From NCBI GenBank assembly GCA_001275005.1, contig JWZX01002690.1:1-35340 (forward strand): a DNA stretch of 35,340 nucleotides, read 5' to 3'. The DNA is from Chrysochromulina tobinii (lineage: Eukaryota). A model generated the notes under the pieces. It was not told the DNA's origin, did not search any database, and saw only the letters and a list, made by a program, of their open reading frames with translations. Both the position numbers and the translations under genes were made by a program. This document shows positions 2,513 through 20,940 of this stretch, piece by piece (position 1 is the first letter of the stretch; every line of letters begins with the position of its first letter).

Positions 2513-4357
2513 ATGAAGGTCCTGATCATATGGCTCCTTTTTCCTCTGTGCCGCACCGACACGACCATTGTCCACAAGCGCCACTGCTCTTTCGAGCACC
2601 GAACCAAGGTCCGGGATTGCACGCAGAACCGCAACCGGCACGATTGTGAGGCGTCACGCATGGGCAGCACACTGGACGTATTCCAAACGTGCTGGGACTG
2701 GGGACACAGCTGCCAGCCAGCCCGACGGATCTTGGCTGCAGGGCTGGACGGCAACATGACGCGGCAACGATTGGCATGGCAGATTCGGAGTCGGCTGCAG
2801 CAGTGCCCCCAGGATGCACCTGTGCGGACCCTAGAGGCGAAGTTTGCACAGGAGGAGTGCTCGTCGTCAATGGAGCTGTGTGTCCGACGGCGCTACACAC
2901 GGCCCGCGCCGGTACAGCCAACATGGGGCAAGTATGGCTACCACGGCAAGCATTTTTCCAAATGGCTCGACGACTTTGAGCTCAGGCATCCGATGACGCC
3001 TCCGGTAGCGAAGACCAAGGGGTGGGAAGAGCCATACAAGGGGCTGACAGCAGCTCTCACTCCGGATGGGGCGGTGCTGCAAGGCGCCGAGGCCGACGAG
3101 GCGCTCTCCGCTCTGCACTTGAGTCGTCCCGTCGCCTACGGTCTCGTCATGATGTCGAGCCACCATCAAAAGGACCTGCAGTACAAGCAGTCGGCGGCGA
3201 TGCTCCGGTGGAGTGCGTCCGCCCTCGCGCACGTGAGCCAGCGGCCAGGGGGGCGTGGCCTCGGGCTGGCCGCACTGCTGCTGGTACACAACAACGCGGC
3301 CTGGAGTGAGAAGGAGCTGATCCGCATGCTGCAGTACTATGAGCTCGAAGGTCCACGCCAGATGCTCCGAATGCTCGTGCGTCCGACGGTGAACATGGGC
3401 TACCTGTGCGGTGAGCTCTCCATCCTCGCCCATGTACTCCTCTCCCATCTACTCTCATGATTCGTCCATCTACCGCACAGGTGAGCTCTCCATCCTCGCC
3501 GCAACGGCCTCGATGTGGGCGCACTTCCCTTGGGTGCTGTACAACAGTGGCCCCGACGCGGTCCTGACCCCGTACGGTGCGACCGCCTTCGCGAATTGGA
3601 TGGAGTGGGTCGAGCCCGGCTGCGCGAACACGACGGCATTCCTCGGCGGCCGCTTTCAGGTGTGATGACGACTGATTGTATGCTGATGGGCCTCCCTCAC
3701 TGCATGCTGACCGCGAACACGACGGCATTCCTCGGCGGCCGCGTTCAGACACCCGAGCGCATCATGCAGGTCGTCCCTCACTTCGCCATGGACGTCTTCT
3801 TCTTTTGGCCTGCCAAGTTCCTCGAGGCCGGCCAGAAGGCGGCTGGCCAAGCCAATAAGGCGCCCCAGCCCATGGCGAGCTCGGGCAGGCGCTCGCCGTT
3901 GATCACGCCGTGGTTGAATGCGACACGATGGTGCTTGATGGGCTGGGCTCCTGACGAGCCACGGCCCGAGTCGACGACCTATGGGCCGTTCAACAATGAG
4001 ACGGACGAGATCTTCGCCCTTCCGGAGTATCTGCTCCACGAGATGCAGTTCAGATTCGATCTCGACTACCGCATACTGCCCGGCGGGACTGGATGGGGGA
4101 TCGCAGACTCAGCCCGGGTCCCCAAACCAGGGCAGCCCGGAAAGTTCGAGAACCGGCACGCTAAGGCCATTCCGTTCCCGAAGCAGACGTGTGCCAACGG
4201 CATCTGCGATGACTGGCACGGGATCTGGCATAGCCACTTTTGGCAGTCGGTTGAGGAATGGATGCACAACCTGAACCGCACGTTTGGAGGCGACGTGCCA
4301 TGGACGCACATGTTCGATGTCGACAAGACTCATCGCACGTACGATATTGTTACCTAG
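2513..4357 (+). CDS. Secreted hypothetical protein, 3 exons (2513-3410, 3481-3659, 3749-4357; 561 aa)
   Basis: Signal-peptide-like start MKVLIIWLLFPLC. Three overlapping ORFs join into one frame after removing two GT-AG introns (spliced length 1686 nt). Confidence 0.7.
3411..3480 (+). other. GT-AG intron (70 nt) whose first 20 nt equal the first 20 nt of the next exon
   Basis: gtgagctctccatcctcgcc occurs at 3411 and 3481. The intron ends in cgcacag and its removal restores the frame. Confidence 0.8.
3660..3748 (+). other. GT-AG intron (89 nt) whose last 37 nt copy the end of the upstream exon
   Basis: cgcgaacacgacggcattcctcggcggccgc(t/g)ttcag occurs at 3623-3659 and 3712-3748. Removal gives GGRFQ|TPERIM. 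Confidence 0.8.
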
Positions 4358-4576
4358 ATATCGATCAGCTGAGTCACAAGCGTCGAGCGAGTCCCTATGG
4401 CTCGATTATGCCGCGCGGTGTCGTCGTACCCCGCTTGCCGTGCCTTTTCTGCGCGGTGCCTTTTCTGTGCGGAGTTTTATCACTTTTCTCACTTTCCGCA
4501 ACGCTGAAGAAATGACGCATAATCTATCATATCGACACGTGACAAGCATATAAGTATCCGCTTGTCCGTGCGCGCC

Positions 4577-6376
4577 TTAGACCAGCTCGGTGCTGCCACC
4601 CGTCTCGGCTTGCCTATCGATCTGCTCATCCCGCGCCTTCTTCGCGCCAAGGATGCACCTCGAGGCAGCGTAGAAGACGAGCGCGAGCACGACCGTAAAC
4701 GTAGATCCCGAAAGGATGGCCATCGCCTTGGCAGCCGTCGAGTACGGCGTCGCGAGGGACGCCACGTACGTCGGGGCGACGGCATGGGCGACCGCCTCGA
4801 CGACGAGGAGAGAGGAGAGTCGGAGGTAATGCACGTAGAGGTCGCGGATGCAAATCAGCCATGTCCAGCCGACAAAGAAGGCGCCGCCGTGGATGAGCAA
4901 GAACATCCCGGTGGCCTTGCGGCTCGCGGAGGTCTCATGCCTCTTGCCAGCGATCACGATCAAGTACGAGACGAAGAGCGTCAGGCTGAGGGTCACGACG
5001 AGGTTCTGGCCGAGGACACGTAAGGTGGGCGCCTGACTGAGCGAGAGGAAGAGTGCCGTGGCCACGTCCGACCACGCGCAACCGACGACGAATGCGAGCG
5101 CCTCCTGGACTGCGTCCGCGTACACCAACGCATACGAGTATGCAACTCCCTGCTGCTCGAGGCGCCTGGACACCAGGCTGGATAAGAGGGTCGCAACATA
5201 AGTGATCGCCAGCGTGTACAGCACCTGTATTTCCACCTTGAGGTACCGCCCACTATCTCTAGGCAAAGCGAGGTACTCGGCCATGTACAAGGTCTTGTAC
5301 CACAAGACCATGGTGACGACCGAGGCGACGCACTTAACCATCGCAATAAAGTCCATGATGAACTCCTCACAGGCTGACGAGCGCTGTACTGAGCGCGAGG
5401 TCCTCGTCGGCGCTGAGGCTGTCGGACTTGACGGTGGGGCGGCCGATTGTGGGGAGGCCGAGGTGCCCAAGATGGCGCTCGTTGTACCCTCTGGGCGTCG
5501 AGGGGGCGGAGTATCCGAGGTGCCCAAGATGGCGCTCGTTGTACCCTCTGGCCGTCGAGGAGGCGGAGTATCGTACGCAGCTCGAGAATGCGCATGAGCA
5601 TCCAGGGCGAGGCCATTATTGGCCGCGCTGGTGTGGGCGCTCCTCGCGCCATCGAGCTCGTTGATCTCGGCGTCGACCTCGGCGTTGATCTCGGTCCTCG
5701 CGGCGAAGGGCTCGATCATCACGATGACGAGCCCGAGCGCGAGCGCCGTCGTGAGCGTGAACGCCACTGCAAAGGCAGCATCGAAGGCGATGCAGTCACC
5801 ACTTGTGGTGAGGCTGCCGATCTCGCAGATGGCCGGGTAGAAGAGCTTCATCTCCACGACGGCCTGTGAGAGGGCGTTCGCCCACGCCCAGCCGACGATG
5901 AAGTTGCAAATGAGGTGGTTGCCGAACATGAGCTTGGCAAAGCCGGTCACTGGGATGGCGATGAGCGCAAAGACAGCCTGGTCCCACGCTGAGCCGACCG
6001 GGTTGCACGGGGCCGGGTGGTATGGAGTGCCACAAAAGGGTACCGGCCGCAAGCCGAGGATGTCGGCAGCGATCAGATCGTAGATCGTGCGAGAGAGGCT
6101 GAACATGGCCGCGCCCTCAAGGAAGAGAGCGACAGCCTTGACCGTGCTAAAGGGCAGAGCCGTGCAGCATATGAGGATCGGAGGCTCGTCGCTCTTGCCG
6201 TACCGAACCCGCAACTTGCTCATCTTCGTGTCATCGGGGCGCGGCGTACGATACGCGAGTGGGTGCGATAAGCGAGTGAGCTTCACGCTGGAAGCATCGC
6301 CGTAACAATCTCGGAGCGTCTCCATGCGTTCACGGAGCATGCGTTGTTTGAACGCGCGCAACTCATTGCTGGCCAT
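4577..6376 (-). CDS. Multi-pass membrane protein of unknown function (599 aa)
   Basis: Long ATG ORF with two clusters of hydrophobic segments separated by a Pro/Ser-rich loop. Confidence 0.7.
   Translation of the reverse strand: MASNELRAFKQRMLRERMETLRDCYGDASSVKLTRLSHPLAYRTPRPDDTKMSKLRVRYGKSDEPPILICCTALPFSTVKAVALFLEGAAMFSLSRTIYDLIAADILGLRPVPFCGTPYHPAPCNPVGSAWDQAVFALIAIPVTGFAKLMFGNHLICNFIVGWAWANALSQAVVEMKLFYPAICEIGSLTTSGDCIAFDAAFAVAFTLTTALALGLVIVMIEPFAARTEINAEVDAEINELDGARSAHTSAANNGLALDAHAHSRAAYDTPPPRRPEGTTSAILGTSDTPPPRRPEGTTSAILGTSASPQSAAPPSSPTASAPTRTSRSVQRSSACEEFIMDFIAMVKCVASVVTMVLWYKTLYMAEYLALPRDSGRYLKVEIQVLYTLAITYVATLLSSLVSRRLEQQGVAYSYALVYADAVQEALAFVVGCAWSDVATALFLSLSQAPTLRVLGQNLVVTLSLTLFVSYLIVIAGKRHETSASRKATGMFLLIHGGAFFVGWTWLICIRDLYVHYLRLSSLLVVEAVAHAVAPTYVASLATPYSTAAKAMAILSGSTFTVVLALVFYAASRCILGAKKARDEQIDRQAETGGSTELV
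5459..5572 (-). repeat. 57-bp in-frame tandem duplication (DTPPPRRPEGTTSAILGTS x2)
   Basis: Two near-identical units at 5459-5515 and 5516-5572. Confidence 0.9.
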
Positions 6377-6588
6377 GTCAACGGGGCTCGCTCGGCTCGC
6401 TGTTGACCGCGAGTCGGTTGGGTACCGGGTAGTGCAACATGATCACGCCATTTGCTCTTCACATCAATTAGACGCACCAAATTAGGTAACGAAACGGACC
6501 CACACACTCACGTTGGACCCAAGGATCTGACAATCGCCAGCTCTTCTAAACTCAAATCTGGCTTTTGGAGATACCCGGTACCTCCTCC

Positions 6589-7845
6589 ATGCTAATGCTT
6601 TGGTGGCACGCGGCCAGCGCCCTCTCCTTGCGGCCAGCCAGCCGAGCCTCACAAATTCACGCTACTGTGGGTACAGCTGAGATCCTTGGACGTAGTCCGG
6701 CCACTTCCGGCGACGTACTACTGTTGGGTCTAGCATTGCAGCAGCTGCAGGCGTCGCCGCTGTCGGTGGCTGAGCTTACAGAATCGATCGATCAAGCTGG
6801 GACCAACGCGTCGCCATCGGCTCTCGAGACGATCGCCGATTTCCTCAAGCGTCAGCGGCGCTCGCAGCTGCTCGTCGATTTGCTCAAGTCGGATCGTGCC
6901 GCCTACATTGAGACAGCGACCTTCTTGCCCATCCCGCGACGTGAGCTGCCCAACCGGCAAGACATACCGCTGCGTGCGTGCGACACAGCGCCGCGACGCG
7001 CCGACGCACTCCCCGAGACTGATCTGATCGGCGGTCTCACTGCCGACGGGTTGGTGCCCGATAGCCCCTTAGCGGACAAGGCGATGGGCGAAAACGGGCT
7101 CGAGGCCGCAATCCTTGAATTGACTCGCGACATCTACTCAAAGGAAACCGGCGTCTCGCGCAGTGACGAGAAGGGCATCCGTGGGCTAATCGACGAGATG
7201 CGCCGCTTTATGCTCTCGGCGCGGGGCGTCTCACCCGCGGCGCAGCAGGAGGTGCTCATTCGGACTCTTCGCGTACTGATGACGCCCGTGCTGCCGCCCT
7301 TCTATCGCATCTTCATGGGCGGCAAGGTGCCGACTTTTGACCCCGAGGACGAGCGCATTGGCGCCGACCCACAGTGGCTCGCCGACGGTTTCAGCTGGGT
7401 GCGCTCCAAGCTGCCCGTGGGCAAGCAGTGGCTCGAGCCGGGCCGGCAGCTCGGTCCATGGTTTTACGCCCCGACGCTGACTGCGGTGGTGGCTCCGTAT
7501 GCGTTCGGCTTCCTCGTTGGCCCCGCGTCTCTCAACCGACGCTCAGACGGCGAGTTGGGGGGGCTCGTGGTGGAGAAGTGCAAATTCCTGCAGGAGTCCA
7601 ATTGCAAGGGCATGTGCCTCAACTCGTGCAAGCTGCCCGCCCAGAATCTGTTTGCTGAGCTCGGGCTGCCCTTGCGAGTGAGTCCCAATTTTGCGACGCA
7701 CGAATGCCAATGGAGCTTTGGCGAGTTGGCGCCACCTCCAACGGAAGACCCGACCTGGCCAAAGGGCTGCGTCGTAGGCTGCACTTCGCGCGAGGCGATG
7801 AGGCAACTCAATGGTGGAGGTCCGACGGTGCGGGCATGCGAGTGA
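6589..7845 (+). CDS. Beta-carotene isomerase D27-like (DUF4033) protein, probably plastid-targeted
   Basis: C-terminal motif VVEKCKFLQESNCKGMCLNSCKLPAQ...LGLPLRVSPNF..HECQWSFG..PP..EDP is typical of D27/DUF4033. The N-terminus MLMLWWHAASALSLRP resembles a signal plus transit peptide. First ATG is at 6589. Confidence 0.85.
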   Translation: MLMLWWHAASALSLRPASRASQIHATVGTAEILGRSPATSGDVLLLGLALQQLQASPLSVAELTESIDQAGTNASPSALETIADFLKRQRRSQLLVDLLKSDRAAYIETATFLPIPRRELPNRQDIPLRACDTAPRRADALPETDLIGGLTADGLVPDSPLADKAMGENGLEAAILELTRDIYSKETGVSRSDEKGIRGLIDEMRRFMLSARGVSPAAQQEVLIRTLRVLMTPVLPPFYRIFMGGKVPTFDPEDERIGADPQWLADGFSWVRSKLPVGKQWLEPGRQLGPWFYAPTLTAVVAPYAFGFLVGPASLNRRSDGELGGLVVEKCKFLQESNCKGMCLNSCKLPAQNLFAELGLPLRVSPNFATHECQWSFGELAPPPTEDPTWPKGCVVGCTSREAMRQLNGGGPTVRACE

Positions 7846-8424
7846 GCCGCACGTGCGCACTACGCTCCACAGCAGAGGAGCAACGTCGACTCCGTCGAGT
7901 GACAAAGAGGAAGAGATCTGGAATCTGGGTGCGTCCCCGTCCGAGTTACCGAGGATCCAGATCTGCCCTCTGGCACGCATGGCTCTGGATGGGAGGCTCT
8001 GGATGGGATGCATGCGTTTGTTCTTCGCGTTCACTCACGTGTCACGATGCACCCGCCCTGAGCTCTGCCGTTCCGGTTCACACAACAGTCGACACATGCC
8101 ATAACCTCGATCTCTGCGGAGTCAGACAAATAATTATCTATGTTCAGGCCTTTAAAGCACGTGATACAGCTCGTACACGGGGCGAGGGGGGGTGGACACA
8201 CGACCGCCGCGGGGCGCGGGAAAGCTACCGGTACAGAGGGCGGGGGAGAGGACAGATCGGATGAACATTGGTGCGCACCGCCAGCTAAATTGCGGACGAC
8301 CCACTCTGACGAATCGCCCACGCAACGCTGTGGAAAGTGACGAATTGCTTCAGGCACCCAAAAAAGGTCTCACACATCGGCACCCACAAACGCAAACGCT
8401 CCCCCCCCGTCGGCACCCCACAAA

Positions 8425-9219
8425 ATGGTATCGACGTCAATGCTGCTTGCACTTGGCTCCGAGGCGCAGCTCAACATCAACTGTACCTTATCCGTCAGCA
8501 ACCCGGTGGACATATCTCCTATACGTTCGCCACAGGATGTCCATTCTGTGCTGGCCAACGATTATTTTGCGCGCAAACGCCTTGTTGAGATTGGCACGCG
8601 CAACGGCGACGGGATGAGCTGCTTTGTTCGAACGGCATCCCACGCGATTGCCTACGAGGCCGAGAAGAAGTATTGCACCAAGCTTGAGGCCCGCCAGCGG
8701 GGAGAGGGGACAAACTACACGGTGAGTTGCACGCTCTTCGGTTCAGCAGACATGGCTTCGTTCCCAGATGCCGACGTGTACCATTGGTGGCTCGGCCGAG
8801 ACTTTCTGAACAAGCAGCTTTTGTACGAGTTGTGCCGGCGCGTAAGTTGCGGTCAGCTACGTGCAAGCACTATAGCGGTCGTGCTCTTTGATCCAAAGGA
8901 GAAGCACGACGTGGCCAGCCTGCGCGACATGCGTCGCCTCGGCTGGATATCACGGGAGCAAGAAGTTGCATACGACGAACAGGCGAAATGCAACGCGATG
9001 CTCGAAGCCCTCAGAGCAGTTTGGCCAGCCTCAACGCCGATCGGGCCTCAAGATCCCGATCTGCTCTGGGCTTGGAGATGGGACCATAACGTGTGCGAAA
9101 GAGCCAAGGGCAGCCTGACGATTGCGACTTTCCCCATCTCGAAGCTCTCCGCGTCTCCGAAATGCAAGTGCGATGCAAGCCGGGCCGACGACGCTGACCT
9201 CAAGAAAGGGTTGTTCTGA
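8425..9219 (+). CDS. Hypothetical protein, possible class I SAM-dependent methyltransferase-like fold
   Basis: ATG ORF of 264 aa. LVEIGTRNGDG resembles motif I and is followed by AIAYE. The function is only an inference. Confidence 0.55.
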   Translation: MVSTSMLLALGSEAQLNINCTLSVSNPVDISPIRSPQDVHSVLANDYFARKRLVEIGTRNGDGMSCFVRTASHAIAYEAEKKYCTKLEARQRGEGTNYTVSCTLFGSADMASFPDADVYHWWLGRDFLNKQLLYELCRRVSCGQLRASTIAVVLFDPKEKHDVASLRDMRRLGWISREQEVAYDEQAKCNAMLEALRAVWPASTPIGPQDPDLLWAWRWDHNVCERAKGSLTIATFPISKLSASPKCKCDASRADDADLKKGLF

Positions 9220-9676
9220 TCGTGCCCAGCTGACCTCAGCTGCTCCGGTTCTCCGGTTCGCTGCGCCTCGGCCTGCCGGGGTGCTCCCCCGGGTGCCCTC
9301 GTCCGGTCCGGGGTGCTGCACTGCGTTGCTGGGCTGCTGGCGGGCCGGCGGCCGGGCCCCGGCAGGCCCGCATGAAGGCCCGTGGTCGCCCAATTGGCCC
9401 GCGGGGTAGTGCCCCGCAGTGACTCACTAGGGCACCAACTCCACCAGCACCGCGATGTGTGCAAATACTATAGAGCTTTTTAAGGCGCCTTTATTGAATC
9501 CGACCCACCGCGCGCGTCACCTGTGCACCTCCCGGTAACGCGCGATCTGTCCAAGCTCCAGGCATGGCTCCAGAGAACCAAAACTCACCCGAATCGAATC
9601 CCGATAGTAGACCACAGTCTACACTCGAGAGATGGCCTTCAAGCAGAGTGCGGGGAGGCGGGAGCGCGCGTGTTGC

Positions 9677-12600
9677 CTAGACGGCGACGGCGGCCTTGCG
9701 CGCGCGCACAAACTCCTCGAACTTTGCGCACGTGGCGAGAAAGTCGCCCGCGTGCGCCTCAGTATCGGCGATCACGGCGTCCCCGTCGACAATCTTGATG
9801 CGCATGTCGAGGTCGACGCGCGTGCATGCGGGGGTGATGGCCTTGGCCGCCGCGGCGGCTTCATATGCGGCGCGCTCCTCGGCAATCAGAGCCTCGACGT
9901 CCTGCACGAGCGCCACCAGCCATCAGAAAAAATCATCATTCTCAATTGGGGATCATCAGCGGCAATGAGCGCACCTGCTCGAGGAGGGACTTGTGATGAG
10001 GGACACACTCACGTGCAAGCAGAGGCAATCAGCACACCTGCTCGAGCATCGCCACCCACGCGTCTCCGGAGAGAGGCTTGCCAGTGAGCCGCTCGACCAG
10101 CCCTAAGAAAGGTTCCGAATTCCCGGGCCTCCAGTAGGCCTCGCGCAGCGTCGGGCCGATCTTGGGGTTGTCGACGAGTGCGCCGTCGCGTTCCGACAAA
10201 AAGGCGCGCGTCTGGTGAACGGCCATCTCGGCGAGCACGTACCCGTGGTAATAGCAGCTCGCTTCGTCAGAGAGCAGGTGGGGCACTGAGAGCAGCGGCC
10301 GGCCGCCGAGCCCGCCCTGGATCTCCTTCTCTACCTTATCGGCGAGGGCGAGCACCGACTGCGCGCTCAGCACGTCCTCCGGCATCTCATACCTGATGGG
10401 AGGAGGCAATCAAAGGGCCATCAGCCGCAATCAGCGGTCCATAGAAGCACTATCTGCAAGTACAGTGCCTTCTCAAAGTAGGGCCATCAGAGGTCATCAG
10501 AGGTCATCAGAGGTCATCAGAGGTCATCAGAGGCACTATCCTGCAAGTACAGTGCCTTCTCGAAGTAGGGCCATCAGAGGTCATCAGAGGTCATCAGAGG
10601 CACTATCTGCTCGTACAGTGCCTTCTCAAAGTAGGGCCATCAGAGGTCATCAGAGGTCATCAGAGGTCATCAGAGGTCATCAGAGGCACTATCTGCTCGT
10701 ACAGTGCCTTCTCAAAGTAGGGCCATCAAAGGTCATCAGAGGTCATCAGAGGTCATCAGAGGTCATCAGAGGCACTATCTGCTCGTACAGTGCCTTCTCA
10801 AAGTAGGGCACAGCGATCATGCCGCGCAGCGTGAGCACTTCGTACGGGTGCTTGGCGCGAACGTCCTCCTCGTGCAACTCGAAGGGGAGGGGCACGCCCT
10901 CGCGGCTGACGGCGTACCTGATGAGGGACGTCATCACACATGATGAGGCAGGCCATCAGAGCTCAGTAGGATGAGGCAGGCCATCAGGGCTGATGAGGCA
11001 GGCCATCAGAGCTCAGTAGGATGAGGATGGCGTACCCGGCGAGGGACGTCATCAGAGGCAATCAGAGGCCATCCACGCACTTGCACCGCCACGCCGCGTC
11101 GCCCACGAGGGAGTCGAGGAACATGGACTGCAGCTCGGCGTATGCGACCGAGGTGGGGGCGCGCTCTTGCGAGAAGAGAGGTGAGCGCTGACGGATATTG
11201 GCAAAGTGCGCCGCGTGCCCGGCCTCGTGCATCAGGGTCGTCAGGGCGGTGTGGCCGGAGCCGATCGCCGAAGGGTCCGCAAGGGAGGTAAAGTGGGTCA
11301 CTGTGGGCTGCCACGATCCGTCCGCGCGCACCTGTGGGGAAGGAGGTGAGGCGTCGTGGTGAGCACTTGCATGCTGGCTCACTGCGGGCTGCCTCGATCC
11401 GTCAGCGCGCACCCACGCAGGCTGCGGCCAGTGGCAGAAGCCGTTGGAGTACTTGCCCTTACGATCGAGCAGGTCGAGCGACATGCTCGCGCCTTCGTAG
11501 GAAATGCCGAGCGCCGAGAAGGAGCGTCCCCACTGTTCGATGGCCTTCTCGAAGGGGAAGTACGGATCGAGCTTCTTGGTGATGTCACCTGTGGGGACAG
11601 AGAGGGGGCGCCGTGGTGAGCACTCGCTTGCTGGGCGACGCAGGGAAAAGTACGGATTGAGCTTCTTGGTGGTCACCCGCCATCATGTACGCCGAGTTCC
11701 ACGGCTCCAGCGCCATCTCGCCCTTCTCCTTCGCGAGCCGTGCGCGCGCTGCCTGCATGAGAGGGCGCGTGCCCTTCTCGAGGGTATCCAGGATTTCGAA
11801 GAGGGCCGCCTTTCCAAACCCCTCGGCCTGCGTGACCTTGTAGTCGTAGTAGTCCACGTACCCGAGGGACTTAGCCATGCGATTGCGCGCCTGGACGAGA
11901 TCGACGCACCCGCTCAGAGGCAATCAAACGCACTCAAAATCAATCAGAGGCACTCCGATGCGCGCCTTGACGAGATCGACGAACCCGTTCGCCGTTACGA
12001 AGTCGCCGATGGTGCGCACGCCATCGTAGCATGCCTTGCGTGTACCTGATGAGGAAGGCAATCAGAGGCCATCAGAGGCAATCAGATGGTGCGCACGCCA
12101 TTGTAGCATGCCTTGGTGCATACCCTCCGCGGAATCGACCCTGATGGGGAAAGGTAAGCAGAGGCAACTAGCCTTGGCGCGCACCTTCCACCGGCTCGAC
12201 CCGCATCTTGTTGCGCAGACCCACGGACGAGAGCTCGACGAAGGAGCCGTCGATGGTCGCGCCGAGTTTCATCTTGTTGCGGGCGGCCTCGAGCGTCCCC
12301 TCGATCTTCATGCACTGCTCGCGCAGCACGAGCCCTTCAGGGTTCTCCATTATGTAACAGCCGAATGTGCGCTCGAACATCTTCAGTGTCTTGCGCTCGT
12401 CGTCCGTCAGGTCCGACGAGGCGAGGTACTCGCGCGTCTGCGCGAGCTTCTCCTTGGACGCGAGGAACGCCTGTGGCGGCGAGACTCGAGCGCGGCCGAC
12501 TCGCATGAGACTCGCATGCGACGCGTGCGCGCCAGTGTGGGTGAGTCTGAGCCGTACGACCTCCATCTCAGCCTTGGTGCGCGTGAGCTCCGGGACGGAG

Positions 12601-12890
12601 TACGCTTCACCGCCGAGCGCCATCTTCGTCCCCCAGAACTGAAGCTCGAAGGACTTGTGGACCTTCTCGTACTCGGTGTTGATCGTTTCAATGAAGGTGG
12701 TCGCGGCCGACATGGCAGAGGGGCTGTAAGACGGAGAATCGAGGCGCAGCGTGAGAGAGCGCAGCAACGGACGGCTGAGTTTGCGAAAGCTGCGCCACGA
12801 TTCGAACCGTGCCGAATACCGTGCTCTCTTCGAGGACATGCTCGCTGCGGAGAGGATCGCGGGAAAGACGCTTGACGCGTACAAGCGCAT
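9677..12890 (-). CDS. M3-family zinc metallopeptidase (oligopeptidase-like), 9 exons
   Basis: HEAGH (HExxH) plus downstream AELQSMFLD, and motifs DLLDRKGKYSNGFCHW and YYHGYVLAEM. Exons: 12713 (or 12890)-12561, 12470-12185, 12045-11966, 11890-11677, 11588-11413, 11331-11081, 10917-10789, 10392-10038, 9901-9677. This gives 622 aa from ATG 12713; the upstream ATG at 12890 would add 59 aa, possibly a targeting peptide. Confidence 0.88.
9902..10037 (-). other. M3 peptidase intron 8 (136 nt) with an internal CAG|GT junction at 9975/9974
   Basis: CTCGAGCAG|GTGTGC at 10037, a second CTCGAGCAG|GTGCGC at 9974, and acceptor GTGCAG|GAC at 9902. Confidence 0.75.
10393..10788 (-). repeat. M3 peptidase intron 7 (396 nt): array of exon-end/donor copies interleaved with (CATCAGAGGT)n
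   Basis: On the + strand, the unit gcactatctgc(tc/aa)gtacagtgccttctcaaagtagggc occurs 5 times, separated by 5, 3, 5 and 5 copies of the 10-mer. Splicing CT|GTACGA...ATCAG|G gives EKALYEMPED. Confidence 0.85.
10918..11080 (-). other. M3 peptidase intron 6 (163 nt), built of CTGATGGCC/CCTCATC repeats
   Basis: AA|GTGCGT...CCTCATCAG|GTAC. Splicing gives DAAWRCKYAVSR. Confidence 0.75.
11332..11412 (-). other. M3 peptidase intron 5 (81 nt, in frame): ~38-nt copy of the next exon plus acceptor cassette
   Basis: The ORF shows duplicated peptide VRADGSRQPAVS...VRADGSWQPTVT. Boundaries are TGG|GTGCGC and CCCCACAG|GTG. Confidence 0.8.
11589..11676 (-). other. M3 peptidase intron 4 (88 nt): ~33-nt copy of the next exon plus acceptor cassette
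   Basis: The intron starts GTGACCACCAAGAAGCTCAATCCGTACTT and the exon starts GTGACATCACCAAGAAGCTCGATCCGTACTT. The intron ends CCCCACAG. Confidence 0.8.
11891..11965 (-). other. M3 peptidase intron 3 (75 nt), GC-AG, flanked by duplicated exon sequence
   Basis: GTCGATCTCGTCAAG|GCGCGCA ... GTCGATCTCGTCCAG|GCGCGCA. The intron contains an in-frame stop, and splicing gives GFVDLVKARNRMAK. Confidence 0.7.
12046..12184 (-). other. M3 peptidase intron 2 (139 nt), compound
   Basis: GAAG|GTGCGC...CCTCATCAG|GTACAC. It contains an internal acceptor-like site (12141), a donor-like site (12123) and a copy of the next exon. Confidence 0.75.
12471..12560 (-). other. M3 peptidase intron 1 (90 nt, in frame), no obvious exon duplication
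   Basis: GAG|GTCGTA...CCACAG|GCG. Splicing gives KAEMEAFLASK. Confidence 0.6.
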
Positions 12891-13256: not shown

Positions 13257-15398
13257 TCAGGCAGTGCCGAGCGTCGTGCCGAGCGGCACGCCCCCGTAGC
13301 TCGTCTGGCGAGGGCTCGAGGGTGCGAGGTACTCGGCAAACGCCGAGCCGCCGGTCGAATCCGCACCCGCCGCGCCGATGCGGGCTCGGTCCGCTGACGG
13401 AAGGCTCTCGGCAAGGGCGAGTCCCGCACGGGAACGGAGCGATGCGAGCGCTGCGCCCGGCACGTACATCTTGGCCGTCGCCTCGGCGTCCGCGCCGTGG
13501 GTGGTGTTGTCAAAGTTGAGCCGCGTGGCCACGGGTGGTTTCGTCTCGTGTTTCGTCAATGTGGCGGCGGCGGCGGTGGCGGCCGCCGGTGTCGCGCCCG
13601 CACTGTCCGCAGCCTCGGTGGATGAGCCTGTGGGAGTGTTCACCTTGGCGCCGGTGGGCGTGAGAGAGCTCATGTACGAGGACGGTGGCGGCGGCGGCAG
13701 CGACGAGTGCGAGGCGACAGCGGCGGCGACGGCGGCGGCGGAGGAGGAGCTCGACGATAGAGAGGAAGAGGAGGACGAGGAGGTGGACGAGGTGTAGGGC
13801 GAGGTGTAGGACGAGGGCACAGGCAGCTTAGACGGAGGCGAGCTGGTCGCGCCACCCATGCCCGCCATCGGAGCCCTGGACGGGAGCATCGGGCGGAAGC
13901 TAGGCGGGCGGGCGTGTAATGATCCGAGCAAGGGGCGCCCGCCCGCCTGCGCCTCATTGAGCTCGTGGTTGAGGAACTGGATGACTTCCTGATTGGAGCG
14001 CAGGAGGGTATGCGCCTCTGTGAGCTGCGCCTTGCATGCGCTCGTGCGCTCCTCGGCGCGGTCCTTGTCCGCACGCAGCTCGGCCGCGGCCGCGCGAAGC
14101 TCAGCCATCGCCTTGGTCGCCACGTCGAGCTCCGTCTGCTTGGCGGCGCAAAGCTCACCCTGCTGCAGAAGCTGCTGCGCCTTGAGCTTCAGCTTGGCCT
14201 TTAGCTCGCGCGAGTCACCCTGGAGCTTGGCGATGATGCTATTCCCCTTGGTGATCTCCTGCGCCGAGAGCCGCAACTGCTCTTGCAGCCGCGAGTGACC
14301 CTCCTTGTACATCGCGAGGGAATCCTCAAGTTGCCTCTTGGACTCGGCCGCAGCCTCACGAGCACAGCCCATCTGAGCGAGGAGCGTCTCCTTGTCGGAG
14401 GCGGCCTGGCTCGCCGCGGCGAGCTCGACGTCGCGCGCGCTCAGCGCCTTCTCGAGCGCGTGCACCCGCGCGCTCAGCCGCGCATTCTCCTCGCGCAGCC
14501 CCGTCGCCTCCTGACGAAGCAGCCCCACCTCCTGCTCCGCCCCCTGAAGCCTGCTCGCCGTCTCGCGTTGGCGCAGCGAGAGCTCGTGCGTGCTGCTCGT
14601 GAGCTCGCCCACGCGCGCGCGCGCCTCGGCCTCCGAGCGGCGCAGCTCGCGGAGCTCCGCCTCGCTCCGATCGAGAAGCCTCTGCCGTGCCTCCTCCGAC
14701 GCCGACGCCTGCTCCTGCTGCGCCGCCACGGCCGCCTCCCTGCTGGCGTTGAGCAGCCCTGCGTGCCGCACGTCACGCTCGTGCAGCTCGCGCGCGTGCT
14801 CGTCGCCGATGTTGCGAAGCTGCTCGGCCTGCGAGGCCGCGCGCTCCGCCGTCGCCTGCAGCTGCGCCGTACGCTCGCGCAGCTCTTCGCTCGTTGTGAG
14901 CAGCTGCGCCTTGTACTCAGTCACGCGGCCCGCGAGATAGCGCTTGATGGCCGCGTCATTGCCAGCGACGAAGCGCAGTGCGAGGTGCGCAAGCTGCCGG
15001 AATGGGTTCGTCTCGGTGATCGTCAGCATCGGCTGGCCACTCTGCGTCGAGAGCACCGCGACAAAGCGCGGGTGGTCCTCAGCGGCGCTGCTCTGGCACT
15101 GGCGCAGCAGCTCGATCACCTTGGAGGGGAAGGTGAGAAAGTCGACGAGGATATTCTGCTCCGTCTTGAGTGAGTGGAAGTCATCCTCCGAGATCTCGAG
15201 CGTGTACAGCAGGAAGGCATCGCTCTCATCCGTTAGCTGCACCCGCAGCACTTTTTGGTTGCGAGGCTGCCCGGTGCTGTGCGTGATCGCGACCGTGAGC
15301 GAGCTCGAGCGGTCCTCGCGGTCGGCGCTCTTTAGGATGACCGGGACTGCCCCGTGGAAGATGTCCTCGTGCTCCTGCCACTCGCAGGTTGCGGGCAT
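13257..15398 (-). CDS. SAS6: Spindle assembly abnormal protein 6 (centriole/basal body cartwheel protein)
   Basis: Head-domain motifs LRVQLTDESDAFLLYTLEISEDDFHSLKTEQNILVDF..FP and ETNPFRQLAHLAL, followed by a long coiled coil and a Ser/Pro-rich tail. First ATG is at 15398. Confidence 0.92.
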   Translation of the reverse strand: MPATCEWQEHEDIFHGAVPVILKSADREDRSSSLTVAITHSTGQPRNQKVLRVQLTDESDAFLLYTLEISEDDFHSLKTEQNILVDFLTFPSKVIELLRQCQSSAAEDHPRFVAVLSTQSGQPMLTITETNPFRQLAHLALRFVAGNDAAIKRYLAGRVTEYKAQLLTTSEELRERTAQLQATAERAASQAEQLRNIGDEHARELHERDVRHAGLLNASREAAVAAQQEQASASEEARQRLLDRSEAELRELRRSEAEARARVGELTSSTHELSLRQRETASRLQGAEQEVGLLRQEATGLREENARLSARVHALEKALSARDVELAAASQAASDKETLLAQMGCAREAAAESKRQLEDSLAMYKEGHSRLQEQLRLSAQEITKGNSIIAKLQGDSRELKAKLKLKAQQLLQQGELCAAKQTELDVATKAMAELRAAAAELRADKDRAEERTSACKAQLTEAHTLLRSNQEVIQFLNHELNEAQAGGRPLLGSLHARPPSFRPMLPSRAPMAGMGGATSSPPSKLPVPSSYTSPYTSSTSSSSSSSLSSSSSSAAAVAAAVASHSSLPPPPPSSYMSSLTPTGAKVNTPTGSSTEAADSAGATPAAATAAAATLTKHETKPPVATRLNFDNTTHGADAEATAKMYVPGAALASLRSRAGLALAESLPSADRARIGAAGADSTGGSAFAEYLAPSSPRQTSYGGVPLGTTLGTA

Positions 15399-15458
15399 TG
15401 TCGCGGCGAGCGCGCGTCGCTTTCGCGCGCCTTTCCTTCCCCTATGCAAGAGTTATGC

Positions 15459-15487
15459 AAGTCAAGTCAAGTCAGTCAAGTCGAGTC
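15459..15487. repeat. Degenerate (AAGTC)n microsatellite just upstream of SAS6
   Basis: aagtcaagtcaagtcagtcaagtcgagtc read directly. Confidence 0.75.
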
Positions 15488-15676
15488 CCCTTACACACTC
15501 GAGAGGGCGGTGTGAACTTTTTCTTTTCTTTTCTAAATAGATTCTCAGAAGCTTTTCGCCCCCGCCGGCACACCATTGCACCATGCCATCAGCAGACATG
15601 TACCGGGTACAGTAGATGTCAGTTTTACTTGGTCGTCGAAGGATTTCGTGCAGGTGGACCTACAAAGTGCATTGAT

Positions 15677-16717
15677 CTAGTCCTTTTCAAACTCAATGCG
15701 AAAGAACTTCACTGTGATGAAGTTGGACAGCCTGCCGATGGCGTTGCCAAAGAGGGGGATGCCAGTTAACAAGTAAACGGATACAAAGAGCAGCTCGGCA
15801 TCGTCTACTGAGCCCGGCGGAGTTTGGCCACACGAGGAGATCGAAAAAAATGCAAAGTATAACGCGTCCACCCAGTTCCATTGATTGTACAGGATCTCGA
15901 AGAGGGTTCCCAACAAGAGAATGAAGAATACCACGAGGAATGGCGCCACGACGTCGTACAGGAACCTGAGTGCCTGCTTGAAGCTTGATTCGTCTGAGTC
16001 CAGCGCCTTCGTGGAGAGCTCCTTAGCCACCTGCAAACATGAGATGCTTGGCGACGGGGTAAGAGCGCAACGGGCGAATCGCAAACGTGTAGCATGCATC
16101 AGCGCGCGTTCGCGGCACAGTGACAAAGGTACCTCTGTCGCCTTGTTGCTCAAGCGCGCCATGAAGATAGCGAGGGCCGAAGTGATGAACAAGATCATCA
16201 CAAGGCCGTGGAGAATCGTAAAAAGCTTCCACAACTCGTTGCGCTCTGTGAATAAGCCATAGCCGACATGGAAGCCCATGAGCACAGAATAGAACAAGCC
16301 GGCCGCCCAAGTTGGCTCCTTGCACGCCGCCGGGTTGCGAAAGTTCGTGAGCGCACCGGGTGGTTGCGGACAAAAGTCGGCAAGAGCAAAGTACTTGTAG
16401 ATGGATGTCGTGATGAAGAGCCAAGCGACGAAGGCCGCGAGCCAGATTCGCCAAGCCAAGTCTTGGCGTCGCTGGCGCTCGCGCTCAACCACGTGTCGCA
16501 GACCCACGCGAAGCGGAGATTTATACGGGGCTGGAGGCATGTGGGGGGCAACAAGTGGTGTGCTCTCTGTCGGCGGCAATGTTGCTCCTGACCATGTGGC
16601 GACCGGAGCTGCAGGTGCCTCCGCCTGCAAGGCAGCTGCTGTAACGGCTTCTGGAATGAGAGCGGGAGCCTCCATATCCAGAGGAGCTGATGCCACGGCT
16701 GATGCTGAGGCCTGCAT
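15677..16717 (-). CDS. Two-pore-domain (4TM/2P) potassium-channel-like protein; probable in-frame intron at 16132-16031
   Basis: TM-P-TM pattern occurs twice, with pore helices GLFYSVLMGFHVGYG and WNWVDALYFAFFSISSCG and the motif YLLTGIPLFG. The intron is GAG|GTACCT...TTGCAG|GTG (102 nt). Confidence 0.75.
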   Translation of the reverse strand: MQASASAVASAPLDMEAPALIPEAVTAAALQAEAPAAPVATWSGATLPPTESTPLVAPHMPPAPYKSPLRVGLRHVVERERQRRQDLAWRIWLAAFVAWLFITTSIYKYFALADFCPQPPGALTNFRNPAACKEPTWAAGLFYSVLMGFHVGYGLFTERNELWKLFTILHGLVMILFITSALAIFMARLSNKATEVPLSLCRERALMHATRLRFARCALTPSPSISCLQVAKELSTKALDSDESSFKQALRFLYDVVAPFLVVFFILLLGTLFEILYNQWNWVDALYFAFFSISSCGQTPPGSVDDAELLFVSVYLLTGIPLFGNAIGRLSNFITVKFFRIEFEKD

Positions 16718-17267
16718 GTCCTTCCCCAGGGCAGCCCCCGCGCACCACGTGCTCCTGGGTGCCCGTGGATGCGCGAGCGCAGCGCAAGGCTAAATTAGGG
16801 AAGTGGTGTCGGTTTCTGGTTTCGGGGTTGGGTTGTGTACGTGCCTTTGCGATGTTACAACTGTGCGGAGTAAACTGTAATTAGTGTTGTAATCCGTTTT
16901 TTCATTTTCTGCTTGCGCGCCGGCGCGGGGGCCGAGATGGCGGGACGGACGGAGCCGACTCCAGCGCGCACAGCGGGACGCCGCGAGGAACCATCGTCGA
17001 ACTCCATCGTCGGCCTTTGATGGCGACCCCGGGCTTGCCGCGGGCTATTGAGTGCCCAGCCTCTGCGGGCCTCTGGGCCCTCGGACAGCACGGTCACGCT
17101 GTTCGTTTTTACACCGTCCGAACACGCTGGGTCGCTGTCCCACCTTAAAAGCTCTCGAAATGACCGATCAGCCGGCAGCGCGGTTCCACATAACCGAACC
17201 GACATTCGATGTGCCTCTCGGCTACCTTCGGCAGCCACAGCCCTACGACGGGCGCCTGGCGCATGTG

Positions 17268-17373
17268 CTGGGAGCATGGCGGCCGCCGCACTCACGGGCG
17301 CCCCACTGCCCACGACGGCGCTCACGGGCGCTCCACTGCCCACGACGGCGCCACTGGGAGCATGGCGGCCGCC
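17268..17373. repeat. Two 30-bp tandem units bracketed by a 20-bp direct repeat
   Basis: ctcacgggcgc(c/t)ccactgcccacgacggcg occurs twice (17291-17350). ctgggagcatggcggccgcc occurs at 17268 and 17354. Confidence 0.75.
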
Positions 17374-17492
17374 ACCGCCAGGTGATGGTAGTGCACGGGA
17401 GGGCGTGCCACGCCCGCCCACGCGCATAGTAACTGGTGCATGCTGGCCCCCTCGGCCGCGTCCTCGGGGGGCGGAGGTGAGACCTCCCCGCT

Positions 17493-18962
17493 TCACATCT
17501 TGAGTGCAATGTTCATGTATGCGTACGTGGTGACCAGCACGCCGGCGACGCCGAGCCATGAGTGCAATGTGGTGGCGACGCCGAAAAAGTTGGCCGAGAC
17601 GATGACGAGGACGGCCATCACGGCTGAGTTGGCAAAGTTCTTGACGATCGCATCGGCGTACTTGTACACGAGTGTAACGGCGAGCCCGTGGAAAGCTTGG
17701 AAGAGCACGAGCAGGAGCGCGAGGGGCGTGTAGCCCTCAAAGAAGCCGACGTGGACCGCGCCAGGCCGGGGCGGCATGACCAGGTACGAGAAGATTGCGA
17801 TCGAGAAGCCGAAGACGTACAGGATCGTGTTCTGCAGATGAACCGTCACGTCAAAGTTCTTCACGACCTGTTGATTCCACACCGACGAGACGGCTGTGAT
17901 GACGGTCGCCACCGCCACGACCACATACCCGTGCGTAGGCACCATGCCGCGCGCCTTGCATGCATCGTACTGCGACACGGCGATGCAAATGCACTGGAGC
18001 AGCACGCACACCCATTGCAGCTCGTTGAGGCGCTGTCCGAGCACGCGCAGCATCAGCGCGACTATGTACGGCGCGAGCGACTTGGCGAGTGTGAACGTGC
18101 CTGGGTCGACCAGCTGCGCGCGAGAAGAGGCCGAGGGTGGGGGTGAGTTGGAAGTGGAGGCTGAGGGTGGGAGTTAGAGAGCTCATGTGGCGGGGCAGTA
18201 GCAGCTCATGTGGCAGGGCACTGTGACTCGAGAGAGTCGCCACACGTGTCGCACCTCGAGCGCATAGAACGTGAGCTGGTTGTTGATGGTGTACAGCACT
18301 GCCAGGAAGAAGTAGTGCGCGCAGATTCGCGGAGTCACGCCCTTAAATGGATCTACGCCGGTCGCCTTCACATGGCGCGAATGCAGCGTGACGGCGAGCG
18401 CGAGCTTGCAGGCCTCCGTCATCGCGACGCACGAGGCGGGCGAGAAGGAGTACGAACCCGACGTCTGGCAAAGCTTGAAAAGCAAGATTGCCACTGACTG
18501 GACACAGACGAGCACCACAAACGAGCCGATCTGCGTGCCGTACGACGACATGCTGCCCCAGTACGACGACACGCCGCCGATGCAGCATTGGAGCACGACG
18601 CAAAGGCAGCACACGATCAGGGCACCTACTGCGAGCATGGGGAAGTAGCTGCCGCTGCTGCTCTCTGGGGGTGGCGACAACAGCTCCGGCGGTGGCGGCG
18701 ATTGCTTTGTGTGTTTTTGTACTCCGTGCTCCTTGTGCTCCTTTTTGACAGTGCTCGCTGGCGACCCCGCACCCTCGTCCACCTTTTTGGCTAATCGCTC
18801 CACCTTTTTGGCAGCACTCTCGGGCGTATCTTGCAGAGATCTTGCAGCGGCCTTTGCAGCGGCCTTGTTGGTGGATGTGTTGGCGATGTCACTCGGCGGC
18901 ACCGGCCGTGTCTGGGCAAACGCCGTGAGGCAGATGAGCAGGAACAGATGCAAGGTACGCAT
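17493..18962 (-). CDS. Nucleotide-sugar transporter (SLC35A-like), 2 exons (18962-18255, 18113-17493; 442 aa)
   Basis: Motifs MTEACKLAL, AVLYTINNQLTF, DPGTFTL, LQW, HLQNTILY.FG and GLAVTLVYKYADAIVKNFA. The 141-nt intron GAG|GTGCGA...CGCAG|CTG restores the frame. Confidence 0.88.
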
Positions 18963-19105
18963 ACCTTCCTGTCAATCAATGCGCCGTCTCGGCCGGGGGA
19001 GCCTGCGCGGCTCTTCGGCTTCGCGGCGCACTGCTCGACGCGGCCGAACGTTTGGGCTGTGAATAATTCTGATGCGTGACTGTGAAAACTATTCGGGGCG
19101 TTTCA

Positions 19106-19129
19106 ACAAGCAAGCAAGCAAGCAAGCAA
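19106..19129. repeat. (CAAG)n microsatellite upstream of the transporter gene
   Basis: caagcaagcaagcaagcaagcaag read directly. The complementary gcttgcttg occurs at about 19178 and about 25787. Confidence 0.8.
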
Positions 19130-19457
19130 GGTACTCGGTTGCGCTGGTTTAGGTACCTGTGTGTGTCGACTAACTAGCTTGCTTGCGTTTCAACAGGGTG
19201 GGGGGGGCACTTTACATGTATCTCTGCACACTGCTAATAAGTCGAAACAACACAAGTATCTTGCTTGCTCTCTGGGTCTGGCTCTCGAGCGCTCTCCGTC
19301 GTTACTCGTTGGTAGATTCGTTTCGGCGCTCGTTTAGTCTCATCAGACATCTCGCAGCCCAACGACCCCAACTTAACCCCAACTCGCAACTGCTTGGGCC
19401 ACCCAGGCCCTGCAAAGAGAACATGCGCTCACATGCGCATGCCGAATATCCTGGCAG

Positions 19458-20940
19458 TTACCACAGAGCCGGAGCATTGTCCCGCACCACGGCGAGCGGC
19501 GCGACAGCTGCGCCGGCGACGCCCCCCTGGACGACCCCATTCGCCTGAGAGCTCTCTTCGCCAGAGAGCGCATACTCGAGCTCTATGCGCCAAGCGGCAG
19601 GGAAGCGCGCGTCCTTGTGGGCACCGTCCACGTCCTCCTTGTACAGCGCGCCGCCATAAGGGAGCGGCTTGAGCATGCGTGCCAGGAAGCCAGTGTGCAG
19701 CGTCGCCCAGCCCAGCCTCTCCTCCGTCAGAAGGCCATTATTACTCAGGCGCAGCTCAAAGTCTCCGCGGAGGAGCAACCCGTCGCCAGGCAGCTCGAAG
19801 CGCACGGCCGGCTGGAAGGGCGCGCAGCGCACGGGGCCGCACGTGCAGATGGACGAGCGCAGCGTCTGGATGCCATCCGCGGTGGGAGACGCCGTCGTGA
19901 GCGCGAGCAGCTCCAATCTCAGATACCTGTGGGGAGAGAGGCGATGGCGCCGTGGTGAGCACTTGCATGCACCGACGGATCCAATCTCAGATACCATGGA
20001 TTGAGATCCAATCTCAAATCAGATTGAGATCCAATCTCAGATACCATGGATTGAGCAGCGAGTCGGCGTCCGCGCGCGGCGCGCCACTTGAGGCGAAGTA
20101 GGCGCCCGGCGCCGAGGAGAGTGTGACCGCCTTGAGCACGACCGTGGCGCCCTCGAGCAGCTGCGCGCGCCTCTCGACCCCCTCGCAGCGCAGCAACTGC
20201 TCGTACATGCGCACGCAACGCACTTGTGATGGCTGGTTGATGGCGTCGAGGTCCGTCGTGCGTGCGCTGCGGAAGAAGTGGATGGCTGCGTCGGCCGACG
20301 GGCACTCGGCGTGCCCGATGCGGAGCAGGAACGCGCACACCATCACCCCTGTGCGCCCCTTGCCAGCCTTGCAATGCACGGCTAGCACATTCGCCTGGTC
20401 ACCCTCCATGAACGCGTACGCACGATCGCAAAAGGCATCGAGCGCGCGCAGCGCGGGTGCGTGGTGATCGGCGAACGGGTAGCGCATGACGCGCACTGCA
20501 CCCGGCCAATCGGTGTCCAGGTAATCGCGCTCGTCGCACAAGTTCACCATCGCGTAGCGGCCGCCGTGTTGGCCATCCATGAAAGACCGCACATCCGAGA
20601 GCGGGTTGCGATACCACGACTCGAATGAGCTGCTCGGCAGCCCCAGCGCGATGACGCGCGGCACAATGTACGTCAGGTCGAGGTCGAAGGTGTCCGTCTG
20701 CGTGCGCCTCTTGGAGCCGGATACCAAGTGCCGCGCGACTCGGAATGGCACATCGGTGACGCCGGAGGCAACTGCGGTGAGGCTCTGCGTCCACGTGGCA
20801 TCCTTGTTGGAGCCCCTCGTCTCGAGTGCCTCGACCTCGAGTGACTCGATGCGTCGCTGCATCGGTTTAATCGGTGCGGCCGCGGCTGCAGCGCTGATTG
20901 GGATAAAAGAGACCGCAGCGCCGTCCTTGTGCTCCGCCAT
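19458..20940 (-). CDS. PTEN: PTEN-like phosphoinositide phosphatase with C2 domain, 2 exons (20940-20045, 19926-19458; 454 aa)
   Basis: Catalytic HCKAGKGRTG, plus LVS..KRR...FDLDLTYI.PRVIA.G.P, YRNP, FADHHAP and PSQ.R motifs. C-terminal C2-like region GDF...LHTGF...KEDVD.AHKD.RF. Confidence 0.9.
19927..20044 (-). other. PTEN intron (118 nt): patchwork copies of the exon junction plus acceptor cassette
   Basis: TG|GTATCTGAGATTGGA...CCCCACAG|GTATCTGAGATTGGA. Splicing gives LLNPWYLRLELL. Confidence 0.8.

Follow-up and report, generated by a model that had tools for sequence, protein, structure and literature searches.

Recently gained introns of Chrysochromulina tobinii combine a long duplicate of the insertion site with a filler likely copied from another intron

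How new introns originate is a long-standing question, and it is raised by a stretch of 35,340 nt (the window) from the cultured freshwater alga Chrysochromulina tobinii. In an initial annotation made from the sequence alone, about 10 introns in three unrelated genes were described as containing a copy of adjacent exon sequence in two mirror arrangements: type 1, in which a GT-starting copy of the next exon is followed by an insert ending in CAG, and type 2, in which an insert starting with GT or GC is followed by a copy of the end of the previous exon. Are such segments true introns, and by what process could they have been gained? The features concerned are collected in Table 1.

Table 1. 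Genes and introns of the window, with exon copies at the junctions and the number of RNA runs (out of four) containing the exact skip
Feature	Position	Strand	Description	Exon copy	RNA runs
Gene A	2513..4357	+	561 aa spliced; hydrophobic N-terminus (putative secretion)		
Type 1 intron	3411..3480	+	Copy of next exon, then non-family insert	Perfect, about 20-21 nt	3
Type 2 intron	3660..3748	+	Insert of CTGAT repeats with GT start, then previous-exon copy that ends in AG	37 nt with 1 error	2
Peptidase M3 gene	9677..12713	-	622 aa, 8 coding introns		
Intron	12471..12560	-	No visible duplication	None	4
Nested intron	12046..12184	-	Outer donor; decayed 31-nt junction-spanning copy; next-exon copy; family-2 insert	Inner module, about 38 nt (score 25)	4
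GC-AG intron	11891..11965	-	Both splice sites from duplication spanning AG/GC	22+7 nt	4
Type 1 intron	11589..11676	-	Exon copy and family-1 module, core 11607-11631	29-33 nt	4
Type 1 intron	11332..11412	-	Exon copy and family-1 module, core 11350-11374	38 nt	4
Family-2 repeat intron	10918..11080	-	Without junction-anchored exon copy	None	4
Family-2 intron	10393..10788	-	Expanded by tandem units including 20-24 nt of previous exon and donor	7 nt (score 4)	4
Type 2-like intron	9902..10037	-	Decayed copy of previous exon end, alone within chance range	Score 8	4
PTEN-like gene	19458..20940	-	454 aa		
Type 1 intron	19927..20044	-	Exon copy, followed by pieces in fold-back and tandem form and a family-1 module with core 19946-19970	15 nt	

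Contigs of four RNA runs from four studies were screened for exact intron skips, and both introns of gene A and all eight introns of the peptidase M3 gene were skipped exactly (introns are named by their first nucleotide). The spliced M3 protein aligned with P0001 with 0 gaps across 619 aa. For the nested intron RNA uses the outer donor 12184, which ruled out a model with two introns there. Part of gene A is KOO27645.1, and no Pfam family was found in two of its exon pieces. Intron 20044 of the PTEN-like gene rests on protein evidence: removal of the 118 nt of 20044-19927 gives a predicted 454-aa PTEN identical to KOO27639.1 across 428 aa, an alternative intron of 68 nt was rejected because the ORF stops at 308 aa, and the joint was absent among the RNA joints listed (best 15 of 27). 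The claim that splicing restores the coding sequence exactly was thus borne out, and no transcripts retaining the segments or using other junctions were seen.

It could be argued that the duplications are assembly errors or that the segments are not introns, since the assemblies are short-read and long tandem arrays vary between them. However, 12 DNA runs contain 96-98% of the sampled 31-mers (run X1 may be the source), the duplications are present in raw-data contigs, RNA skips the copies exactly, and read-through proteins come from many independent contigs. An artefact is therefore refuted for the 10 junctions with listed RNA skips, and this explanation has next to no probability.

Junction-anchored exon copies were scored against 240 mismatched pairs (top control score 9; the pairs include two guessed introns with wrong coordinates, 27106 and 31090, both ignored as rows). 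Seven of the 14 supported introns in 2850-20950 carry copies beyond chance. All positions given as type 1 (3411, 11412, 11676, 20044 and the inner module of 12184) exceed the control, while 10037 and 10788 fall within its range and no junction copy was found at 11080, 12560, 12819, 16132 (scored 1 nt off) or 18254, so the figure of about 10 introns held for seven. Among the proposed type 2 cases 3660 stood and 10037 did not rise above chance; at 11965 the copy spans AG/GC, which makes the duplication, and not the insert, the source of the GC donor.

Three window inserts share one 25-nt core (0 expected by chance), and others carry 10-mer arrays containing CTGAT. In five regions of the window no terminal inverted repeats occur; what matches in inverted orientation at 3411 is the flanking exon, both ends of this insert being inverted copies of the upstream exon (11/11 nt across the acceptor). 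In 9600-12900 every Rfam family stayed below its gathering score, and the idea that U1 snRNA or another small RNA served as the template was discarded, as Rfam gave only chance-level C/D-box matches.

Beyond the window the inserts fall into two abundant families. Family 1 is represented by 294 cores across 112 non-redundant loci, and a copy of the next exon lies upstream at 149 of 173 acceptor sites of its module on other contigs, compared with 7 of 516 in the control (a first count of 162/206, which included tandem-array self-matches, was superseded). The duplicates at these acceptors are 8-45 nt long, with a median of 27. The long variable duplications, the mirror configurations and the lack of terminal inverted repeats that had been described in the window recur at more than 100 further sites. 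The mirror form occurs within the same family, type 1 and type 2 sharing one core, and similarity between introns stops short of one end, the 5' part in type 1 or the 3' part in type 2 being a site-specific exon copy. None of 14 donor-carrying core copies, read by eye, has its own canonical acceptor tail. The two types are the ends of a continuum which includes introns with both sites from the duplication and core-only inserts. Tails were unique in 129 of 138 cases, the shortest fillers measure 9 nt (L087 vs L040), and core divergence did not correlate with duplicate decay. A conserved hairpin in the core was rejected, the folds being weak and a common variant breaking the stem (by eye).

In an uncurated and only indicative generic scan, the family-tagged matches comprised 140 of type 1, 26 of type 2 and 48 junction-spanning ones, and 197/411 were untagged, largely opposite-strand re-reads and arrays. 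In 154 kb at a distance from the search seeds, 19 family-1 cores and 12 family-2 ends were counted, a density of about 12 and about 8 per 100 kb, which in a genome of 59 Mb (PMC4580454) would amount to several thousand copies. Viral contigs gave 1 and 0 matches, and three matches in prokaryote genomes were taken as chance and dropped. No homologue was found when a 51-aa piece was used as the query.

The proposed recent activity is supported by close relatives. Intron 11965 is missing in P0360, P0350, P0362 and P0363, 11412 is missing in P0362 (P0360 has a different insert at that site), and 12560 is missing in P0335, though it shows no visible duplication; these relatives are near-identical. 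Intron 20044 is missing in the 92%-identical P0300. Relatives without an intron include ones with 99-100% identical exon protein, so ancient shared positions were not seen. One clean polymorphic intron was found, with a single-copy empty site and a perfect 34-nt repeat at the filled site; among the loci examined, its 49-nt insert has a single exact match, the next intron, 524 nt downstream. Deletion between long repeats would yield a perfect empty site too, so that a single polymorphism does not prove its direction.

At a probability of roughly one half, we consider these to be real, recently gained spliceosomal introns, in which a duplicate of the insertion site is joined to a filler whose probable source is one end of an existing intron, copied through template-switching repair of a staggered break. 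Nicks on opposite strands about 20-40 nt apart would leave complementary 3' overhangs, and one end would prime, through a few bases of AG/GT-like homology, at another intron's junction, frequently that of a nearby intron, from which synthesis would copy 10-70 nt inward. The copied end would then rejoin the other end, and fill-in of both overhangs would create the duplicate. Antisense-end priming would supply branch point and acceptor (type 1), and sense-end priming would supply donor and branch point (type 2). In exons only products restoring the mRNA would survive, so that duplicates start with GT or GC or end with AG and introns measure 67-90 nt. Each new intron would in turn become a donor, and families would thus arise without a full-length master element. 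In mouse cells, paired nicks with 3' overhangs are reported to produce tandem duplications that occasionally contain templated inserts (PMC5730883, PMC8355091).

Several observations argue for template-switching repair. The duplicates vary in length without helical, 10-nt periodicity (Rayleigh p 0.09-0.23, n=60), and the filler of the clean polymorphic insertion matches the next intron. Near-identical inserts are enriched in near neighbours (3/135 pairs vs 6/14,687), and the tails are mostly unique. The shared core of both types, the 9-nt fillers and the same-strand bias of tail-less cores (55 of 58 on the strand of the neighbouring acceptors) point the same way. The ends of the 3411 insert are inverted copies of its own upstream exon, so sense RNA cannot template them. 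Against this reading, two families dominate and family 1 has a sharp 5' edge at GCATGC (of about 108 junctions, only 7 lie over 3 nt into the core), a pattern that fits a recognised element. Taken across all sites, the signal of local copying is weak (mean shared suffix 9.8 vs 8.9 nt, n=69, p=0.0004), 43-48 nt are common to two pairs from different loci, and spacers are not enriched for inverted local templating (2/57 vs 2.2%). The neighbour-copy result is one event, and the strand bias can stem from selection for splicing. The responsible nuclease or polymerase is hypothetical, and frequent, uniformly staggered breaks in this alga would be a puzzle.

A non-autonomous retro-process would instead have a reverse transcriptase prime at a nick on an intron-containing RNA (pre-mRNA or excised intron) or a SINE-like RNA, with second-strand cleavage 10-45 nt off giving the duplication. 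The variable duplication length typical of non-LTR elements (PMC9977147) is found here, the 3' end is fixed and the 5' end variable in type 1 (the reverse holds in type 2), the 55 to 3 sense bias and neighbour copying fit a nascent-RNA template, and the repeated 3'-terminal units of family 2 fit re-priming. We nevertheless hold it unlikely: inserts end in YAG with no poly(A), simple or fixed tail and no small-RNA-derived head, the mirror type would need internal priming, the inverted copies at 3411 require a DNA template, and when long ORFs of the loci, about 1% of the genome, were crudely scanned for motifs, no reverse transcriptase candidate came up (1 unrelated match). Of the two routes suggested in the initial annotation, both hypothetical, templated break repair fits somewhat better than target-primed retro-insertion; the reading in that annotation stood overall, with the addition that the inserts are not unique and are probably drawn from other introns.

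Movement of tiny non-autonomous elements by a Replitron- or Helitron-like HUH transposase, which would leave one precise end, one fuzzy donor-flank end and a variable target duplication, is more doubtful still. Replitron-1 of Chlamydomonas reinhardtii inserts after RG in one orientation with donor-derived fuzzy ends and variable duplications, and one Rep locus was recovered from C. tobinii (PMC10288648); the L065 insert includes 7 nt of donor flank (one event), and the sharp family-1 edge agrees. But the precise ends differ between families, only splice signals being common, inserts of 9-70 nt stand against 0.9-3.6 kb, no terminal direct repeat is apparent by eye, Replitron insertions are described as under-represented in coding sequence and introns in Chlamydomonas, and 3411 lies outside both families. 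Slightly less probable again is that ordinary short-duplication introners came first and that half of each intron was later replaced with exon sequence when it recombined out of register with a cDNA or an allele lacking the intron. Introners with a 4-bp target-site duplication in marine Chrysochromulina MAGs (PMC9860276), the anticorrelation of duplicate and insert length (slope -0.73) and the junction-spanning tandem expansions that arise later (10788; L071 vs L032) speak for it. However, none of the 284 scored cores belongs to a full-length family-1 copy, the donor-to-core distance of 22-50 nt is broad and not fixed (too broad for exact length replacement of a 72-nt master), and the youngest insertion already has its full 34-nt repeat.

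Introners that take a splice site from the target duplication are described in Symbiodinium, in Polarella (classes 4/5, 6/8/10 and 14) and in family 5 of a marine Chrysochromulina MAG (PMC9860276; bioRxiv 10.1101/2020.10.14.339549). Like them, the C. tobinii introns are alike in sequence at unrelated positions, take one splice site or both from duplicated exon, leave the mRNA unchanged and are present or absent among close relatives. Unlike them, the similarity is limited to one half and does not reach both intron ends, and the duplication, fixed per class at 3-8 nt in those accounts, is variable here and makes up at least one third of the intron. The fixed short target-site duplication and terminal inverted repeats of MITE-type (DDE) introners were not found. 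Introns from staggered-break repair in Daphnia pulex also show, at their far end, a direct repeat of adjacent exon sequence, along with later nested insertions and parallel gains, but their repeats are described as 4-12 bp with mostly unknown insert sources (PMC4202315), whereas the C. tobinii fillers are traceable to intron families numbering thousands. Replitron-1 is alike in orientation, fuzzy end and duplication; it differs in its terminal direct repeats and Rep transposase, and intron-making is not among the properties in the description drawn on (PMC10288648). Tandem AG/GT duplication resembles 11965, and intron transposition likewise brings intron sequence to a new site within one gene (PMC3443670; local propagation in Oikopleura, 10.1101/051292); a filler is superfluous in pure duplication, and what transposition moves is an entire intron with no long duplication, whereas here half an intron is combined with a long duplication.

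The idea of a different, recently active mechanism is thus supported and extends well beyond the window. C. tobinii was screened for introners but is not listed in one survey (PMC9860276), and it was scored with 0 families in another (PMC12130899), in which introners are presented as the only route to genome-scale intron bursts; yet several thousand cores are extrapolated for this public genome. Somewhat short of even odds, its introns may self-propagate without a transposon, break repair copying half of an intron, often the next in the gene, and a 10-45-nt exon duplicate serving as the other half, with thousands made and still segregating. If so, such bursts would be unseen by end-to-end introner searches, and similar ones may be missed elsewhere. 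Because target and donor are preserved in each event, the decaying duplicate acts as an inbuilt clock, and near-identical relatives carry empty alleles, the way in which introns are gained can be tested directly in this alga.

The window genes matched C. tobinii CCMP291 records (KOO27639.1 and KOO27645.1) at 100%, and their introns were modelled by hand, then compared with contigs from four of six available RNA runs, from which splicing efficiency cannot be read. In gene A a 70-nt segment was skipped in contigs of three of the four runs and an 89-nt segment in two, and in the M3 peptidase gene segments of 90, 139, 75, 88, 81, 163, 396 and 136 nt were skipped in all four, each in agreement with its model. 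The 118-nt PTEN intron model agreed with the annotated protein across 428 aa, its RNA joint not being among the matches listed.

About ten window introns had been thought to carry a copy of adjacent exon sequence. Against 240 mismatched pairs (maximum score 9), junction-anchored copies exceeded the control in introns 3411, 3660, 11965, 11676, 11412 and 20044 (named by donor coordinate), together with the inner module of 12184, which is 7 of the 14 supported introns; those at 10037 and 10788 scored inside the chance range and are suggestive. Intron 11965 had been assigned to the mirror form, in which an insert supplies the donor and a previous-exon copy follows. Its exon copy stood, but the duplicate crosses AG|GC and thereby supplies both splice sites, including the GC donor credited to the insert.

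Three window introns had a 25-nt core in common (family 1), with a CTCAC that we take, from the consensus, to be branch-point-like; other introns there (family 2) carried CTGAT 10-mer arrays ending in CATCAG. Scanning metagenome contigs for the family-1 core gave at least 133 stretches in 127 loci, a sample neither complete nor random. Once 17 loci that were redundant or allelic and 3 prokaryote matches attributed to chance had been taken out, 112 sequences remained, the window being one of them (671,510 nt in all). With sites followed by another array unit excluded, an anchored upstream copy of the next exon was found at 149 of 173 family-1 acceptors vs 7 of 516 controls. Among the matches listed, 138 of these 149 copies began with GT or GC, the copies measured 8-45 nt (median 27), 50 of 138 duplicates were perfect with a mean error of 5.6%, the target consensus was (C)AG|GT(G/A)CG, and the introns implied by sequence would be 67-90 nt long (5th-95th percentile). 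Fourteen family-1 copies had their own GT head, also among the matches listed; judged by eye, at least seven such sites continued into a 14-26-nt previous-exon copy ending in AG, and a canonical tail of their own was seen in 0 of 14. For family 2, a copy lay within 145 nt of 35 of 83 acceptors among the matches listed, long arrays making up many of the negatives. Fillers of core alone, flanked by 13-53-nt repeats, were also present, and away from the search seeds 19 cores and 12 family-2 ends occurred per 154,359 nt. Between direct repeats, metagenome loci L001 (151-290) and L015 (near 9850-9940) held other short-repeat fillers, a GACGAACCCT 10-mer and GACTT arrays, which suggests additional families.

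Coordinates of further features in the window
Position	Feature	Remark
1335-1895	Coding tandem repeats of 45 nt	Rich in Met/Ala/Pro
5458-5571	57-nt tandem duplication (96%)	Multiple of three; no filler
12471-12560	M3 intron 12560
12724-12819	Further intron	RNA contigs
15460-15490, 19107-19135, 25780-25800, 27325-27340	Short GCAA, CAAGT, TAGCTTGC repeats	5' of several genes
16031-16132	Further intron	RNA contigs
17268-17373	Perfect 20-nt direct repeat enclosing two 30-nt units	Units resemble 3' half of family-1 core; no splicing seen in evidence examined
18114-18254	Further intron	RNA contigs
19100-19137	Repeat	Flagged in read comparison
31191-32970, 33585-35340	1.8-kb inverted duplication, 93.5% identical, head to head	Runs past window end; 5' part of membrane-transporter-like gene, presumably Na/Ca exchanger

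In relatives, ORFs ran through several of the intron positions. A 588-aa ORF 76% identical to the M3 protein (P0145, on a 63,331-bp contig) was uninterrupted at all eight intron positions, and in the C. rotalis cluster seven of the eight were crossed by genomic ORFs. ORFs of closer relatives gave a sharper picture. At the protein level, a relative identical in 231/231 exon residues (P0362) appears to have intron 11676 and to lack 11965 and 11412, and P0360, represented by 40 contigs of which the longest has 24,710 bp, appears to lack 11965 and to enter a different, family-2-like insert at 11412. Near-identical relatives present three states at 11412 (family-1 intron, different insert, empty), which is likely parallel gain. 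PTEN likewise appears unbroken at the 20044 site in a 92% identical relative (P0300, contigs up to 21,855 bp), and ORFs of 98-99% identical relatives appear to enter that intron. Intron 12560 contains neither duplication nor family motif and, judged from protein, is absent in P0335 (98% identical), whose ORF enters the introns on both sides; another gain route or intron loss must also be at work.

Eleven overlapping locus pairs were compared as DNA, and the single-copy empty site that recent gain calls for was found. The 81-nt intron of L065 consists of a perfect 34-nt repeat plus 47-nt filler, and L011 and L033 have the exact single-copy site at its position, with flanks 98% identical. L087 vs L040 differed by a 9-nt filler and a 33-nt repeat (not listed when compared over a shorter window), and L071 vs L032 by an additional family-2 module with a ~37-nt repeat across a donor. 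Intron loss through deletion between the repeats can leave what looks like an empty site; comparison with outgroups indicates gain overall but does not polarise every case.

At its 3' end the L065 intron has 49 nt whose only exact match was the same gene's next intron, 524 nt downstream, and this downstream copy was exact in L011 and L033 and had one mismatch in L065 itself. Across all sites the neighbour effect on filler similarity was real and small; tails were unique in 129 of 138 cases among the matches listed, and two cross-locus pairs had 43-48 nt in common. The 3411 filler belonged to none of the families, its start and acceptor end being inverted copies of the upstream exon, and the PTEN intron contained a fold-back piece; inverted copies tested in family-1 spacers were not enriched.

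All forms are one geometry, duplicate-filler-duplicate. It could arise if a staggered break left 3' overhangs and one end were first extended on another template, the choice of end deciding between type 1 (next-exon copy, then insert with acceptor) and the mirror form. Selection would set splice-compatible boundaries and intron length, and serial copying would explain why the middle is conserved, the flanks are diverse and a full-length master is absent. The 57-nt duplication in the table fits such a break repaired without template switching. Family 1 has a sharp 5' edge and two families dominate; both observations speak for specific recognition, so that a retro-process or a Replitron-like transposase stays a candidate source of these introns. 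A transposon-free, self-copying route by fill-in on existing introns is given a probability of about 0.4.

The C. tobinii introns work like staggered-break intron gain and behave like introners, but fail the fixed-TSD, TIR and end-to-end tests for known introners. Introners with 4-bp TSD are reported for marine Chrysochromulina MAGs (PMC9860276), where, among the rows listed, 'tobin' matched only in the list of screened genomes; the relevant portion of the PMC12130899 supplement gives C. tobinii 0 families. The 2022 pipeline, as outlined in PMC9860276, needed similarity close to both intron ends, which is likely why these introns were missed. Portions of further sources were considered (10.1101/2020.10.14.339549, Polarella; PMC10288648 and its preprint, Replitron; PMC4202315, Daphnia; PMC3443670; PMC9977147; PMC11282704; PMC4580454; PMC5730883; 10.1101/051292; PMC8355091), and in the literature searched, subscription journals and bioRxiv supplements lying outside it, no account of Chrysochromulina introns with long, variable duplications was found. 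The introns of C. tobinii are real, recent and abundant, and they apparently represent a system undescribed so far.
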